Notes: generated by a model not told the origin, from the letters alone. Numbered from the stretch's first letter, positions 22,704 through 28,829 are shown. The stretch: 64,000 nucleotides of DNA from Clostridiales bacterium (GCA_015069325.1 SVIV01000001.1:168052-232051); one strand, 5' to 3'. A program made the numbers and translations.

Positions 22704-25700
22704 TTATGCAGAAAAGTCATTTTCATTTTCTTCTTCGAGTTCAGGAACTGCACTAATTTCATTATGTTGAATTTCTACATAAGTCTCTTTTTCTTTGGCA
22801 TCAATCATATCTTTAGTGTGAATATTGCCGAAGATATGTTTGATAAGAGAGATTCTATTACGTATTTGTTTAGGTTTTTTAGATTTTGTAAGATCTGCAG
22901 AACGTGGTTCTTTTCTTTGATCTTTAACCTTATCTTGCACTTCTTTAAGTTTATCTTCTTCCTCTTTAATACGCTTTTTGATTTGTTTTTCAATGTCTGC
23001 AGGTGTTATGTTTTCAAGATTTGCATAATCAATACCTAAGTTTTTGAAAATTTTAAAATCGTTTTCGTTAAAGCGGATTCCTTTAAGTCCATCAACTTGA
23101 GCAAGGTGGAAGAAGTTTCCTGTTGCAAAGTGATATAAAACGTTTCTAATTTGCTCTGGAGAATAATTGTGTGGTGGATTTTTAAGTGCTAAGATTGCAG
23201 AATATTTATTTGTAAATTTTTCGGCATCATTAATCACTTTGTCAGCACTTGCACAGCGAGAAATATACTCTTTGTCGTGTTCAGTATAAGCACGATTTAT
23301 TTTTTGAAGAGTAGCAAATTCTGTTTTCTTTTCAGCGATTGTTTCTTTGCCTAATACTGAGTAGCCTGAAGTTTTTTCAATAAGATTTAACTGAGCTTGT
23401 GCATTTTGTTTTGCAGAAAGCAGTTTTTTGCCATCTCCATTTGCTTGGGCAATTTCTTTATTAAATTTATTAAGTCGAGTTTCAATTTCTTCAACATTAA
23501 CACCGAATTCTTTAAGATTTTTAATTAATTTGTTGTAAGCGAGTTTTTCTGCTTCTGTTGCTTTTTTGCCAGGTTTTTTAAGTAGTTCGCCAAGTGCGTC
23601 AAAATTTCCTTCTTTTGTTGCTTTTCTCCAAGCTTCAGTAAACAGTTCTTCGGTTGTCTCCATTGAAGTAATAACTTTTTGCAAATGAGATTCTTTATTC
23701 TTTTGAGATTCTGTTAAGTTGTAATTTTCTCTTTCTGCTAATTGTGTGCCGGATACAAGTTCATCAAACAACATATTTGAATAGTTTTCTCCTAAGTCAT
23801 TAGCAACACAAGAAAGTTCAAGTCTTGCACGTTTGTCTATTTCAAGTTTGATGGCTTCAATCTCTCTATCTGCACATTCTTTAAGCCACTCATTTACAAT
23901 CATATCAGTTGATGCAAAATCCATATCAAATGCGTGCTGCATTGCAACAGCAAATACTTTGTCTTGATATCTATCTTCTAATACACGTCTAATTATGACT
24001 TCTTTATTAACGCCAGATTTTAGAATTTCGAAGTTGATTTCTTTTTCAAGCTCTTCTCTATCAGCTTCAGGGAAGTGTGCAACAAGAGATTTTACGTCGT
24101 TGAGAGTAATTTTGCTTATAATTTCGCCTGCAGTAGGAGCGGAAGTATTTATTTTTAAATTTCCATATCTTCTAATTAAGGCCATTTTCACTAAGTCATT
24201 TACATTTGCGTCAGGGCTGTCAATGTCATTAATAATGTCATAAATGTCTTTTCGAACGGCTTCTCTATCGCGCTCAGGCAATTTGTTTATTACTTCATTG
24301 AGATTTTGAAGATTCACTGTGCTTTCTGTAAGCAATTCAACGGAATCTTCAGTTTGTGCAACAGGATCAAGAATAGTAAGGCCAAGTGCGTCAATTTCAA
24401 CTTGATTCATTACGTGTTTTGCTAAAGTTCCGTTTAAAGTCATATTATAAAGTTTTTCAAAACCTTTATATTGCTTTTTAATGTCGCTGTTTCCCGCTGT
24501 TTGTTGTTGATAACGAATATATGCTTTTGCAATCAAAGCCTTTTTCATTTCGTTGTCGCCAAGATCTGCATATTCATCTGTGTAGTCAAGGGCAAATGCT
24601 CTTCTCTTTGTTCTTGCTGCAACAAGTTCTTGCCATTCTTGTTCAACTTGTCCAGAGAATTGTTTGATTTCTTCAGGAGATAAGTTTAAATTTTTATAAA
24701 ACTTATCAAAAAGTCTCTTTGTGATATCAATTTGAGTTTTTCCGCTAGCAAGTGGTTTAATTGCTTCTCTCAACTTTCTATACTCTGGTTTATCAGGATT
24801 TGCTTTGACAATGTTTGAAATGATTTCTATTGATTTATCAAAATCATCAATAGAATGTGTGTCGAGATTGATATCAATTAGTCCTTCAGCATATTGCTGT
24901 GCAATTATGTCATAAATTCCACAAGCTCTGGCTTCTTGTTCAACAAGTTGATATTTCAACTTTAATTTTTCTGCCAAACTTGAAGTAAGGGCAGGTTCTC
25001 CACTTACAATATTAATTAAGTCAGAAAGTTTTGCAGAGCCAAGGTCGCGTAATTCATCGAGAGATTCATTAGTTTTTCGGATTGATTCACTGATTGCACC
25101 GTGAGATTTTAGTCCAAGATAAATTTGAGTATTCTTTGTTACTTGTTGAATAGTTGCAACAGGTGGAATGATGTTTAAAGTATTCATTGCGTAAATGTAT
25201 GCTTTAATTGTCTCTGCTCGTTCGTATTGTCCTTCTACAACGGCCGCAATTCGGGCTACTCCGTCCATTTCATCAACCATTCGGTCGCCGATTTCTTCTA
25301 ATTGTGAAATAACTTCAGCTTTTTTCTCGTCAGAAAGTTTTGAAAGTATTTGATTAAGCTTGTCTTGGCTTAAATTGTCATCGAGAGCAAAACGTCTGTA
25401 AATTGTTGAGCCATATCTTTGAACAAAATTATCAGTTTCAATTTTGCTATGAGCAAAGAGTTTTGCGATAAGTTCATCTCTCATACCGCCAAGAGCAACT
25501 TTTTGCTCTGAGAGAAGGTCAAGAGAAGGTTGTTCCGTATCATTTAAATCTTTCATTGCCATAGTAAGTTTTGTTAATGATTCAAGTGAATCTTCAGATT
25601 TAAACATATTGCTTAGTTGCTCTTGAGCGTCTACTGGTAAGTTTTCAGTAAAATGAAGCTTAAAAAACTCGTCAATTCTTGCTTGTTTTTCATTTTCAGG

Positions 25701-28700: not shown

Positions 28701-28829
28701 TTTTTCGATTGAAAAGATATCTCCACTTACTGTAGAATAACTAAGGATTTTTTGTCCATTTGAGATTAATGTTAAATCTTGTTTAATTATTTTTCCATTT
28801 TTCTTTATTTTATTTGTAATAGTAGCCAT
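22704..28829 (-). CDS. Giant orphan protein (2,041 aa): beta-rich N-domain, long coiled coil, K/E/D linker, central hydrophobic hairpin, helical C-terminal half
   Basis: Single uninterrupted ORF. AGGAGATAG-type RBS (aaaggagatagtATG). No N-terminal signal peptide. I recognise no catalytic or NTP-binding motif. Confidence 0.85.
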   Translation of the reverse strand: MATITNKIKKNGKIIKQDLTLISNGQKILSYSTVSGDIFSIEKIGGKFKLQFSSLGKALLGLTSDIDVELADKSVSMLPRKTRGVTTIGQEMELTVKINGKESKLVANAESVKFTTGQASYEYQSAQGTSLGVNLSEEGIGLVMGDGKLFASTPKTYDRDFPLPIFKLLVAARQNNSASETTVGNFTLKTFNSYAKYPHYVMIDNTSNIPYVMHANSFHQFTGYVPLQDDNGRYYLALRGTGNVDLRFDLTSENGTFSQSALDMISFVSSNPNLQNLSSPAKATLSANGISMLFEKEDSSNIKEIKPAFSGQEYDLGMQPSQAGANIDISSLLNLINTLIVKIDELPKNATIINIQKSLTEQISLLQTLNNKVENNNQLVQSIYESTNQYLLIMQTFQASYDKNSDELKAKLDEISSNLKSQNTSLIEINQKLNKLDVIEDEMKKLLSQLTENGSEQKGQHKEIVDEIRQLRSIQRKILAELGSTSSSVRGLKRSISSFIKTTEEHFERTDLQIERLTQIIAEGFDKLNDQSLVNEQLNQNIIAITNQFQQELNRIEQNNTLNTQNIINTINNNNIQVINSNLDTKNQIYQLMLMQLQNATKELAREASSFELKDLLNEANMQYAQWANNTPMTPEAQQKITDIMKGAREVAEQIEKFNSQAEGNEALPEEIEQKLQSLQQMNKNFASPDIDTSLAYFTDKFVASLVAKGKPSLESLQDKRKQKEKDDGLLTDPISIVIAKMLKEIRDYLTANPLLSDEIIANFNVLQTTINQLQQQYNILYNKGASVEIINNLNKNIDQLSITITQLLQSGISPYVGKLLKEMLIELKKLIKLHEKDIKPEEKEEDEDEKDKDKEYDKKEEKQTDEKKKDEPQEISYKTQIENWTKATAPLGAFLFIAGCFVPVVGPLLLGVGLTAFGGSIILNHYADKFKFKQTFGKFEKIITQAEQEALEDADELAKFIENEKTLNLSQEKINDLSQNLDDLLQDESLPTHILTEMYDKYGIGFNANNNLDNSRSHDLCGLDGHKIRTSMYDMISAIQNAPENEKQARIDEFFKLHFTENLPVDAQEQLSNMFKSEDSLESLTKLTMAMKDLNDTEQPSLDLLSEQKVALGGMRDELIAKLFAHSKIETDNFVQRYGSTIYRRFALDDNLSQDKLNQILSKLSDEKKAEVISQLEEIGDRMVDEMDGVARIAAVVEGQYERAETIKAYIYAMNTLNIIPPVATIQQVTKNTQIYLGLKSHGAISESIRKTNESLDELRDLGSAKLSDLINIVSGEPALTSSLAEKLKLKYQLVEQEARACGIYDIIAQQYAEGLIDINLDTHSIDDFDKSIEIISNIVKANPDKPEYRKLREAIKPLASGKTQIDITKRLFDKFYKNLNLSPEEIKQFSGQVEQEWQELVAARTKRRAFALDYTDEYADLGDNEMKKALIAKAYIRYQQQTAGNSDIKKQYKGFEKLYNMTLNGTLAKHVMNQVEIDALGLTILDPVAQTEDSVELLTESTVNLQNLNEVINKLPERDREAVRKDIYDIINDIDSPDANVNDLVKMALIRRYGNLKINTSAPTAGEIISKITLNDVKSLVAHFPEADREELEKEINFEILKSGVNKEVIIRRVLEDRYQDKVFAVAMQHAFDMDFASTDMIVNEWLKECADREIEAIKLEIDKRARLELSCVANDLGENYSNMLFDELVSGTQLAERENYNLTESQKNKESHLQKVITSMETTEELFTEAWRKATKEGNFDALGELLKKPGKKATEAEKLAYNKLIKNLKEFGVNVEEIETRLNKFNKEIAQANGDGKKLLSAKQNAQAQLNLIEKTSGYSVLGKETIAEKKTEFATLQKINRAYTEHDKEYISRCASADKVINDAEKFTNKYSAILALKNPPHNYSPEQIRNVLYHFATGNFFHLAQVDGLKGIRFNENDFKIFKNLGIDYANLENITPADIEKQIKKRIKEEEDKLKEVQDKVKDQRKEPRSADLTKSKKPKQIRNRISLIKHIFGNIHTKDMIDAKEKETYVEIQHNEISAVPELEEENENDFSA

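Follow-up and report, generated by a model that had tools for sequence, protein, structure and literature searches.

What does a 2,041-codon gene do in the midst of translation and secretion genes? The question arises from a 64,000-nucleotide stretch of DNA from a Clostridiales bacterium (the window), in which the original prediction saw a giant membrane-tethered protein, encoded by one unbroken 6.1-kb ORF with a good ribosome-binding site and lying between a ychF-mrnC-rlmB-sigH-glnS string and secA. The ORF and its flanking signals are as follows.

22704..28829, minus strand: coding sequence of the giant protein, complete, 2,041 codons plus stop, ATG start
28835..28840, minus strand: ribosome-binding site AAGGAG, 5 nt before the ATG; a GGAG-type site is conserved across orthologous loci
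28860..28888, minus strand: candidate sigma-A-type promoter, TTGACA, 17-nt spacer and TG-extended TAATAT (consensus match)
22659..22687, no strand assigned: stem-loop with a 12-bp stem, within the 68 nt that separate the stop codon of the giant gene from the start of ychF

The ORF and the ribosome-binding site were thus confirmed. An uninterrupted frame of 6.1 kb is far beyond chance in DNA of 33% GC, the orthologues were intact at each related locus looked at, and an identical protein was encoded on at least 23 contigs assembled independently of one another (NCBI, JGI, ENA, Logan). The ORF is a real gene. Its candidate promoter lies 30 nt upstream of the ATG, and consensus matching placed a near-consensus sigma-A promoter and a ribosome-binding site in front of the gene at all ten orthologous loci. 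The neighbours were also as described: genes for YchF, mini-RNase III (Ribonuclease_3), RlmB, a SigH-like sigma factor and GlnS follow downstream on the same strand, and the SecA gene lies upstream in divergent orientation. The stem-loop has no U-tract behind it on the coding strand and does not have the form of a canonical intrinsic terminator; transcription might therefore read through from the giant gene into ychF.

The protein had been called an orphan, which proved too strong. An exhaustive HMMER search of 1.84 billion representative proteins found at least 27 clusters of relatives at 50% identity (1,350–2,700 aa). All 27 matches are members of the protein's own family, and the named ones are all "hypothetical protein [Clostridia bacterium]". 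These clusters and the contigs above also dispose of the concern that the ORF might be unique to one assembly. The giant protein is a member of an undescribed, clade-restricted family, found in a single clade of uncultured gut Clostridia. The ychF/secA context was conserved at each of the ten loci examined, where the gene is present in single copy, upstream of ychF and divergent from secA. The description of a lineage-specific gene in a housekeeping neighbourhood therefore holds, and the position is fixed. The secA gene directly adjoins the giant gene at eight loci; at L007 and L011 one further gene lies between them. Genes for secE, nusG and signal peptidase are also in the region.

This setting would suit a lineage-specific accessory of secretion or membrane-protein biogenesis that is coupled to SecA, for example a tether organising translocon sites, as would a membrane-anchored protein with large cytoplasmic parts, the topology suggested below. 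We consider such a role improbable. The whole region is syntenic, so that adjacency to secA, interrupted in any case at two loci, says little specific, and the giant protein resembles none of the known Sec accessory proteins. Moreover, SecA is 76-91% identical where the giant protein is 23-32% identical, which is unexpected for a tight physical partner.

The difference in rate extends to the other neighbours. In a genome pair whose SecA and YchF proteins are 91–92% identical, the giant proteins are 32% identical, with a dN of 0.67 compared to 0.03–0.17 for the neighbours (a 4- to 20-fold excess) and an omega of about 0.4 compared to 0.04-0.12. Clade-wide identity of the giant (23-32%) likewise falls far below that of SecA (at least 76%). 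The gene is the fastest-evolving of the region; a putative surface protein, giant2, evolves more slowly and keeps 53% identity across that genome pair. Constraint is concentrated in a hydrophobic hairpin, which is the most constrained part (60% identity, omega about 0.18), and in a helical core (omega 0.34), and is weaker elsewhere. These comparisons show that the protein evolves very fast but is still under some purifying selection. This new finding weakens the earlier idea that the neighbourhood reflects a core housekeeping function: the neighbourhood reflects a synteny that embraces the whole region and is no evidence of a housekeeping role, and the giant protein is probably not a conserved core machine.

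The layout proposed originally (beta-rich head, spacer, charged linker, hydrophobic hairpin and long helical arm) is real and is kept in relatives. From N- to C-terminus, the common plan of the family comprises a beta head, a variable spacer, a charged linker, the hairpin, a helical core, a helical arm, a basic amphipathic motif and an acidic tail. In the window protein these parts, some of them predicted, are encoded as follows.

27930..28829, minus strand: beta-rich head at the N-terminus, aa 1-300; the strands run to aa 296, and aa 137-173 form a helical connector
26310..27839, minus strand: Q/N/L/E/K-rich coiled-coil-like spacer, aa 331-840, from composition and heptad periodicity
26190..26309, minus strand: K/E/D low-complexity linker, aa 841-880, 75% charged
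26055..26168, minus strand: hydrophobic hairpin of two helices, aa 888-925, rich in Gly/Ala and free of charged residues, with its turn at a central 'PVVGP'
25230..26054, minus strand: juxtamembrane helical core, aa 926-1200, with 'ADKFKFK', 'YD.YG.GF', 'G.DG..IR' and 'RYGSTIYR'
22950..25229, minus strand: long all-helical arm, aa 1201-1960, from AF2 secondary structure; repeated helical modules in part
23961..24341, minus strand: tandem internal duplication, aa 1497-1557 and 1567-1623, '[LF]PE.DRE...RYG' units
23454..23576, minus strand: helix-Gly-helix module of ~38 aa, aa 1752-1792 ('...AYNKLIKNLKEFGVNVEEIETRL...'), copy number differing by orthologue
22821..22904, minus strand: C-terminal basic/amphipathic motif, aa 1976-2003 ('RSADLTKSKKPKQIRNRISLIKHIFGNI'), kept in close orthologues
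22707..22820, minus strand: acidic C-terminal tail, aa 2004-2041, acidic in essentially all members

The N-terminus has no hydrophobic segment on the Kyte-Doolittle scale, in keeping with the claim that a signal peptide is lacking. Of all 19-residue windows along the chain, the sole one above 1.4 begins at position 887 (maximum 2.36), and the top value outside it was 1.28. Residues 1-296 are predicted by AF2 to be mainly beta strand (pLDDT 71, pTM 0.68), close to the beta-rich region of about 330 residues noticed earlier. The head is conserved starting at Met1 ('MA..I.NKI') and is 38-40% identical to the heads of close orthologues. A head-domain profile search matched the giant protein alone at each locus, and a structure search gave no credible match to the head fold.

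Residues ~330-840 had been read as coiled-coil type. Residues 331-840 contain 20% Q+N and 4% G+P, and heptad (3.5-residue) hydrophobic periodicity peaks at about 365-530 and 617-760, all of which is consistent with a coiled coil. The stretch does not define the family: it is 146-510 aa long in close orthologues, with 22-28% identity, and in distant members it is missing or Pro/Glu/Gly-rich low-complexity sequence stands in its place. The charged linker expected after it was found. Matches to PDB sequences that arose from this linker are compositional and were rejected as spurious.

The hairpin, also anticipated, is charge-free, and AF2 predicts a helix, a 4-residue break and a second helix at low pLDDT. 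Each full-length member has one such segment of 38-46 aa with a central Pro/Gly turn, free of internal charge in most members. The core (~270 aa) is the region common to all 27 family matches; it is 47% identical to that of the closest orthologue and reaches a pLDDT of 83-89 at aa ~975-1105. Identity in the arm (~800 aa) is 25-32% to the closest orthologue. AF2 predicts 45 helices and no strands in residues 876-2041, which agrees with the mostly helical region of ~1,100 aa in the original prediction; the AF2 models were built on three sequences only, and that of the arm is of low confidence (pLDDT 51.5, pTM 0.28). The tandem duplication in the arm was supported by hhalign (probability 92%, E 7e-7 over 406 comparisons). 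The helix-Gly-helix module, which resembles designed helical repeats only, occurs once in the window protein, six times in P0004 and twice each in P0002 and P0005. At the position of the C-terminal motif, distant members carry 'GFFKKLIDIF', 'WNFFKKLFGKKK' or 'NSMFKKLANLF'. The last 30 residues contain 10 Asp/Glu and 2 Lys/Arg, and the family is acidic, with a pI of 4.8-5.7 across all members examined.

Searches by sequence and structure bore out the statement that the protein belongs to no described family. Pfam, NCBIfam, PHROGs and PADLOC gave no family match, no relative was found among PDB sequences, and Foldseek searches of PDB and BFVD with the AF2 models found none, the search for distant structures being confined to these two databases and the arm model being of low confidence. 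Neither tblastn against 50,697 phage records and 72,556 plasmids nor a search of IMG/VR viral contigs gave a match. The Mollicutes cytoskeletal and gliding giants (HMW2, Gli349/Gli521) showed no similarity by Pfam, NCBIfam or the 27-match family search. A motif scan was negative for Walker A, Walker B-like, HExxH, LPXTG and CxxC motifs, which together with the empty Pfam and NCBIfam searches upholds the earlier failure to see a Walker A or peptidase motif. Thirty alignment columns are at least 85% conserved over 20 members; most of them are Phe, Gly, Pro, Glu or Gln, and none is His, Cys or Ser. From the lack of motifs, of family matches and of conserved His, Cys or Ser, we propose that the protein is non-enzymatic.

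The same results bear on a mechanochemical-type machine of the SMC/Rad50/MukB or bacterial dynamin kind. Such proteins are likewise large and rich in long helical or coiled-coil segments, membrane association would be in character, and dynamin-like proteins insert a hydrophobic paddle into membranes. An SMC-type protein has an ABC-type ATPase head, formed by an N-terminal Walker A and a C-terminal Walker B with a signature motif, and an antiparallel coiled coil that folds back at a hinge or zinc hook; a dynamin-like protein has a GTPase domain with a G1 P-loop (GxxxxGK[ST]) and G2-G4 motifs. MukB was the top Foldseek row for the arm, but with a TM-score of 0.05 and an rmsd of 78 Å this match is meaningless. 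The giant protein has no [AG]xxxxGK[ST], hhhhD[EDS], signature, P-loop or other GTPase motif, no CxxC hook, no conserved catalytic-type residues and no match in Pfam or NCBIfam, SMC_N, Dynamin_N and related families included; the coiled-coil stretch of the family is dispensable in distant members. Because there is no NTPase motif, we regard this reading as effectively refuted and the least credible of those considered.

Scarcely better is descent from a domesticated phage or mobile-element gene, for example one for a tape-measure or ejection protein, which we judge very improbable. Tape-measure proteins are also very long, mainly helical and without a signal peptide, and have internal hydrophobic helices. 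Three sub-threshold matches point the same way: phrog_12173 (a family of unknown function; E 0.005, 31 residues), Pfam TMP_3 against one repeat copy (E 0.086) and, by Foldseek, a cyanophage pre-ejectosome (E 0.25, TM 0.12-0.14). However, the weak matches all fall on the generic helix-Gly-helix junction; phrog_12173 lands on the module, as does a sub-threshold match to DUF6074. No PHROG family was significant, no TMP profile rose above noise and, as noted, the phage, plasmid and IMG/VR collections held nothing. Unlike a tape-measure gene, the giant gene encodes a conserved beta head and lies outside a tail module at a fixed chromosomal position, flanked by secA and ychF-mrnC-rlmB-sigH in 10 of 10 loci with no phage genes nearby.

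The original prediction had put both giant arms probably in the cytoplasm, and this is the topology best supported by the sequence and the models. It would follow from the lack of a signal peptide, the uncharged two-helix hairpin with its Pro/Gly turn and the Lys/Arg residues that border the hairpin on either side. Immediately behind it comes a strongly basic stretch ('ADKFKFK', 'KFKFMKKAKDK'), as the positive-inside rule would predict for cytoplasmic arms.

Our tentative preference, which we hold as possible, is for a non-enzymatic scaffold anchored at the cytoplasmic face of the membrane. Its scaffold-like traits are the all-helical arm, the duplication and copy-number change of modules, the variable spacer, the acidic pI and the constraint in hairpin and core. 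We infer that a strong vegetative promoter drives synthesis in the cytoplasm and that the single Gly/Ala-rich helix-turn-helix (aa 888-925) would enter the cytoplasmic membrane, leaving the N- and C-terminal arms inside. The core (aa 926-1200) and the ~800-aa helical-repeat arm would then form a platform near the membrane, to which the basic amphipathic motif near the C-terminus may add a second contact. The spacer would hold the beta head off the membrane at a species-dependent distance, set by 510 coiled-coil-like residues here and by almost nothing in distant members, and head and arm would bind partner proteins.

Some observations fit a scaffold less well. Fast divergence is more typical of arms-race or outside-exposed proteins than of cytoplasmic structural ones, although rapid drift can also occur in helical or coiled-coil scaffolds under low constraint. 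Ranked by hydrophobic moment, an amphipathic 14-mer within the last 110 residues belongs to the top ~1% of its protein in most members; in the window protein the top-scoring segment is another charged stretch (93.8th percentile) and not the C-terminal motif. Two positional orthologues, P0020 and P0024, have BspA-type LRR_5 repeats added at the N-terminus, a domain that is usually extracellular; these repeats (PF13306) are absent from the window protein by Pfam.

The fusions belong to the evidence for the main rival, to which we give a real if minor chance. The protein could be surface-exposed or delivered into another membrane (of a host cell, a protist, a neighbouring cell or a vesicle), where it would interact with a host, a partner or a phage. 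The hairpin would be the anchor and both arms would lie away from the cytoplasm of the producer, as with a chlamydial Inc protein in the inclusion membrane. An arms race or host adaptation would then account for the sequence turnover, the changes in module copies and the LRR fusions. The extreme rate relative to neighbours, exceeding even that of giant2, and the variation in spacer length and repeat number speak for such exposure, as do the LRR_5 and DUF285 genes close by in several loci.

So does the hairpin. The hairpin of Inc proteins leaves both termini on one side of the membrane, and these proteins are often coiled-coil-rich, clade-restricted and fast-evolving; most have 100-1,000 aa, and they are exported by a type III system of Gram-negative intracellular pathogens. 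A bilobed hydrophobic domain of ~40 residues is reportedly the Inc criterion of Bannantine et al. in 2000 and Dehoux et al. in 2011. A review that cites both papers covers chlamydial Inc proteins as T3SS substrates with a hydrophobic hairpin (PMC9993115). The 38-46-aa segment of the giant family, with its Pro/Gly turn and predicted helix-break-helix, resembles the ~40-residue hallmark. Against it, the family has one copy per genome, a fixed housekeeping locus and no recognisable secretion signal. To our knowledge Clostridia would not be expected to have a T3SS, and the 64-kb window contains no T3SS genes. The giant protein lacks a signal peptide, a lipobox in signal context, LPXTG, and a cell-wall-binding or S-layer domain, and the loci show no secretion-system genes beyond the housekeeping secA, secE and signal peptidase. 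Arms of 330-1,080 aa and ~1,100 aa would thus need export without a signal, and we know of no route in Firmicutes for signal-less translocation of two such large arms. Export would also set the basic flanks of the hairpin against the positive-inside rule, and the highly charged helical composition is that of cytoplasmic proteins.

A scaffold at the inner face would functionally resemble the membrane-anchored landmark or hub proteins HubP/FimV, TipN and EzrA, with no homology to them. HubP/FimV proteins of Vibrio and Pseudomonas are large and membrane-anchored, with a long, strongly acidic cytoplasmic part of imperfect repeats whose number and sequence differ between related species, and serve as non-enzymatic recruitment platforms. 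Their N-terminus begins with a signal or TM segment, a LysM domain lies in the periplasm, a single TM helix crosses the membrane, and the C-terminus carries a FimV motif. Polar hub proteins of this type were reportedly described by Yamaichi et al. in 2012. The giant family shares the acidic pI and the repeats (1 to 6 copies), an analogy and not membership: its anchor is an internal hairpin, its cytoplasmic head is beta-rich, there is no similarity in sequence or fold, and none of 20 members matched LysM or FimV.

EzrA, a division regulator of Firmicutes, has about 560 aa, a single N-terminal TM helix and, behind it, a coiled-coil domain of ~500 aa with spectrin-like repeats (Pfam EzrA), and TipN of Caulobacter has N-terminal TM helices. 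The giant protein differs in its length (2,041 aa), in its internal anchor at residue ~890 and in the absence of an N-terminal hydrophobic segment, and it matched neither the EzrA nor the TipN family. EzrA and TipN are cytoplasmic helical or coiled-coil scaffolds that are held at the inner membrane face, lack an enzymatic domain and change rapidly in sequence. The giant protein, as proposed here, would be alike in all of these respects.

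The gene for the giant protein and the elements at its two ends are as follows.
22704..28829, minus strand: giant gene, an ORF of 6,126 nt specifying 2,041 residues
28888..28860: top promoter match of the giant's region, TTGACA and a TG-extended TAATAT separated by a 17-nt spacer
22659..22687: perfect 12-bp stem-loop in the 68 nt that separate the ychF start from the giant's stop codon

The ATG of the giant gene is preceded, at a distance of 5 nt, by an AAGGAG ribosome-binding site. The exact protein was recovered from at least 23 contigs (NCBI, JGI, ENA and Logan; the longest is 491 kb), so the giant is not an assembly artefact. 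The neighbours are as the original prediction described them: on its strand the giant gene is followed by the genes for YchF, mini-RNase III, RlmB, a SigH-like sigma factor and GlnS, and the divergent secA lies upstream. The window also encodes gyrB, gyrA, several aminoacyl-tRNA synthetases and an rpmG-secE-nusG-rplK-rplA block. Its GC content stays near 33% along its whole length, and no compositional island stands out. The stem-loop has no U-tract behind it on the coding strand and so does not qualify as a canonical terminator; it may instead act in processing, stability or attenuation. The GlnRS gene of the window (18116..19810, minus strand) follows sigH, a slot occupied by MetRS (tRNA-synt_1g, 669-670 aa) in all related loci reaching that far. 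One aminoacyl-tRNA synthetase gene is swapped for another at this fixed syntenic position.

Conservation of the gene and of its ychF/secA context among relatives, which the original prediction had left to be surveyed, was found at 10 of 10 independent loci, where the gene lies between a divergent secA and ychF-mrnC-rlmB-sigH. (The L009 locus, from an independent assembly, is DNA-identical to the window.) The gene directly adjoins secA in eight loci, and a single extra gene is inserted in each of L007 and L011; the one in L007 (7624-9861) encodes a 745-aa orphan. Each locus carries one copy, and no paralogue was found among the sequences of the loci examined. Matches to the consensus place a near-consensus sigma-A promoter 29-73 nt upstream, together with a GGAG-type ribosome-binding site, in all ten. 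The fixed place, single copy, promoter and ribosome-binding site indicate that the members are positional orthologues, which appear to be vegetatively expressed. A sporulation-specific role, suggested by the nearby sigH, is disfavoured because the promoter is of the sigma-A type in all loci and because the mrnC-rlmB-sigH and rpmG-secE-nusG-rplK-rplA arrangements are ancestral Firmicutes synteny. A functional link between the giant and SecA has adjacency in its favour and nothing further; as the whole region is syntenic, we see only a slim chance of it.

Fixed in place, the gene has diverged much further than its neighbours.

Amino-acid identity between proteins of the window genome and their counterparts in the related locus L001
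L1: 96%
L11: 94%
YchF: 92%
SecA: 91%
RlmB: 82%
Methyltransferase: 76%
ABC transporter: 75%
Second giant protein: 53%
Giant: 32%

Across all loci, identity to the window's proteins was at least 76% for SecA and at least 79% for YchF, while that of the giant fell to 23-32%. By the Nei-Gojobori method, dN was 0.67 for the giant and 0.03-0.17 for its neighbours at similar, near-saturated dS (1.1-1.7), giving an omega of about 0.40 for the giant compared to 0.04-0.12 for the neighbours. The hairpin (residues 888-925; omega about 0.18) and the core that follows it (residues 926-1200; about 0.34) were the most constrained parts. The gene is intact, under some purifying selection and by far the fastest-evolving in its neighbourhood. 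Such a pairing of strictly fixed position and body plan with extreme sequence divergence is rare in one gene. It also shows that a gene cannot be assigned a housekeeping function from housekeeping neighbours: the step from neighbourhood to core function that had been taken is contradicted by the rate (32% identity against 91% for SecA).

The giant, first described as an orphan, is not a singleton. A word-indexed search with the full-length protein returned 2 relatives, and an exhaustive phmmer search of 1.84 billion representatives with the conserved blocks (residues 1-300, 876-1200 and 1601-2041), by which we define the family, returned 27 clusters, 19 of them at E ≤1e-10. Full-length members have 1,356-2,701 aa, and all named members bear the title "hypothetical protein [Clostridia bacterium]" and derive from metagenome-assembled genomes of gut samples. 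A GTDB scan found two species, from roe-deer colon and water-deer caecum, with patterns specific to the close subfamily that understate the distribution. All detectable members belong to a single clade of roughly family rank; any orthologues further away would escape detection by sequence.

Searches for described relatives were negative, in agreement with the original prediction. The giant matched only DUF6074 in Pfam-A (E 0.31), nothing in NCBIfam or PADLOC, and in PHROGs a single 31-residue stretch of a family of unknown function (E 0.005). Against PDB sequences, profiles built from 3, 17 and 20 members of the family yielded nothing beyond compositional pairings of the K/E/D linker with charged tails (CBF5, RyR1, Nop56); these, the "significant" rows among them, were rejected as homology. 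Foldseek gave TM-scores of at most 0.23 for the N-terminal head against PDB and BFVD, too weak for use of its resemblance to the tandem PH domains of SSRP1/Pob3, and E ≥0.02 with TM ≤0.14 for the arm against PDB. Among 20 family members, Pfam matched BspA-type LRR_5 alone, in two of them. By these sequence and PDB/BFVD structure searches the giant's family matches no known family, and we regard it as a new protein family; no current annotation resource detects it. The family was also without a match in 50,697 phage and 72,556 plasmid records (tblastn), in a scan of IMG/VR viral contigs and in a JGI metagenome scan. Descent of the giant from a phage tape-measure protein is essentially unsupported, and we regard it as very improbable.

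Composition, a motif scan and AlphaFold2 models bore out the earlier description of the ORF, its layout and its signal-less N-terminus. The models are shallow, having been built on an alignment of three sequences. In them, residues 1-296 consist chiefly of beta strand, plus a helical connector (pLDDT 71, pTM 0.68), and residues 876-2041 contain 45 helices and no strands at low global confidence (pLDDT 51.5, pTM 0.28), with a well-defined bundle at about residues 975-1105 (pLDDT 83-89). Residues 331-840 are rich in Gln and Asn (20%) and poor in Gly and Pro (4%), with hydrophobic heptad periodicity peaking at about 365-530 and 617-760, and residues 841-880 are 75% charged. The sole strongly hydrophobic stretch, residues 888-925, is modelled as a helix, a 4-residue break and a second helix; there is none at the N-terminus. 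The motif scan of the protein found no Walker A/B, HExxH, LPXTG or CxxC motif, and an SMC or dynamin-type machine, also essentially unsupported, is to us the least probable of the readings considered.

Much of this plan is common to the family. Every full-length member lacks an N-terminal signal sequence and has a beta-rich domain homologous to giant residues 1-300; in front of this domain, P0010 and P0020 carry additions of about 200 aa or longer, and P0020 and P0024 carry LRR_5 repeats. Each also has exactly one Gly/Ala/Ser-rich hydrophobic segment of 38-46 residues with a central Pro/Gly turn, almost no charged residue inside and Lys/Arg flanks on both sides; a helical core with the conserved motifs "ADKFKF", "YD.YG.GF", "G.DG..R" and "RY...I.R"; a C-terminal arm that runs for about 1,030-1,580 residues from the hairpin; and, 50-75 residues before the C-terminus, a basic amphipathic stretch, followed by an acidic tail. 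The coiled-coil-like spacer is an optional part and does not define the protein: it measures 510 aa in the giant and 325, 146 and 326 aa in its three closest orthologues, and is absent in distant members.

By profile comparison, the arm contains real internal duplications (residues 1497-1557 against 1567-1623; hhalign probability 92%, E 7e-7, 406 comparisons) that BLASTP self-comparison missed, while the N-terminal head showed none (hhalign probabilities at most 2%). A helix-Gly-helix module of about 38 residues is present once in the giant, twice each in P0002 and P0005, and six times in P0004. The "LGI(D/N)V..L" module was considered as a nucleic-acid-binding motif of the SAP, HeH or Rho-N type, an identity that would have pointed to a chromosome-membrane tether; it was rejected because no SAP, HeH or Rho_N family matched. 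Its profile matches just nine residues of designed helical-repeat proteins.

We know of no export route for a signal-less protein with two very large arms; this, the missing signal peptide, the two-helix uncharged hairpin and its basic flanks, which are strongest right after the hairpin and fit the positive-inside rule, uphold the probable in/in topology first proposed. All members are acidic (pI 4.8-5.7), and the 30 columns conserved at 85% or more across 20 members are mainly Phe, Gly, Pro, Glu and Gln, with no His, Cys or Ser, which argues against an enzyme. Acidity, a spacer of variable length, a helical arm built of modules, missing catalytic residues and constraint concentrated in the anchor and the core beside it all suit a role as tether or platform. 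Our most likely reading, held tentatively, is that the giant is a non-enzymatic scaffold anchored by its hairpin at the cytoplasmic face. Its closest functional analogues known to us are HubP/FimV, TipN and EzrA, whose defining features it lacks except for a generic acidic region of variable repeats. The observation behind the original prediction stands, and its interpretation survives in part (architecture, probable topology and the absence of a described family, but not the orphan status or the step to a core function, and with the coiled coil as an optional part).

The main rival, which we think rather unlikely, likens the giant to chlamydial Inc proteins and has it either exposed to another membrane or delivered into one. 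This is favoured by how fast the giant evolves, by the fusion of LRR_5 to two orthologues and by neighbouring LRR_5 and DUF285 genes, but an export signal is absent and the charge distribution around the hairpin is against it. More specifically, and improbably in our view, these giants could form a new class of fast-evolving proteins, anchored by a hairpin, with which a clade of uncultured gut Clostridia, possibly associated with hosts or protists, contacts the membrane of another cell. They would then be Gram-positive counterparts of Inc proteins in function and would leave the cell by an unknown route. Were that true, adaptation to the partner would account for the LRR fusions as well as for repeats and spacers of varying length. 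If instead the giant is cytoplasmic, as the scaffold reading has it, it could represent a previously unknown type of bacterial membrane skeleton.

Giant uncharacterised proteins are not rare in uncultured bacteria. If the proposed reading holds, however, this family has an architecture of its own (beta head, variable spacer, internal membrane hairpin and helical-repeat arm of about 1,100 aa) and is present, as a single copy, throughout one clade of abundant, uncultured gut Clostridia. The pairing of fixed position with extreme divergence also marks the giant as a candidate for lineage-specific cell biology such as membrane organisation, or for host/phage interaction. Every genome in the clade gives about 6 kb to the gene, with a consensus promoter; judged from these features, the giant is likely a major cell component and worth targeting in metaproteomes.

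Further features were noted in the window and the related loci.
36211..44658, minus strand: second giant ORF, 2,815 aa, N-terminal hydrophobic anchor at about aa 32-51
34773..36101, plus strand: 442-aa ORF beside rplA, sub-threshold DUF285 (Mycoplasma-type) match
31846..32151, plus strand: 101-aa ORF in the secA/rpmG interval, sub-threshold HicB-like antitoxin match (26.4 bits; Pfam cut-off 27)
32400..32798, plus strand: SecE ORF, 132 aa
46322..47002, plus strand: 226-aa ORF with no Pfam match
61135..61277, minus strand: ribosomal protein L10 leader (Rfam RF00557, 72 bits)
L011 216-1988 and L012 4050-5858: LRR_5 proteins of 590-602 aa just past secA

The second giant ORF is unrelated to the first (BLASTP E 0.83). 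It has no Pfam, PHROG or PADLOC match and its exact sequence was not found in the protein collection; counterparts of 2,275-2,801 aa (39-53% identity) lie beside rplA in L001, L006, L007 and L008. The HicB-like ORF has counterparts of 87-93 aa in related loci, with no HicA-like partner adjoining. The region beside secA seems to accumulate lineage-specific, possibly surface-related genes. The SecE domain occupies only aa 80-130 of its ORF (relatives have 109-141 aa), so that either its N-terminus is greatly extended or the TTG start is wrongly placed. The start of the 226-aa ORF overlaps a tRNA gene (46330-46417); this ORF, or at any rate its 5' end, is probably not real. The L10 leader lies far from rplK-rplA (33.5-34.7 kb), so the usual rplKA-rplJL cluster is split in this genome.
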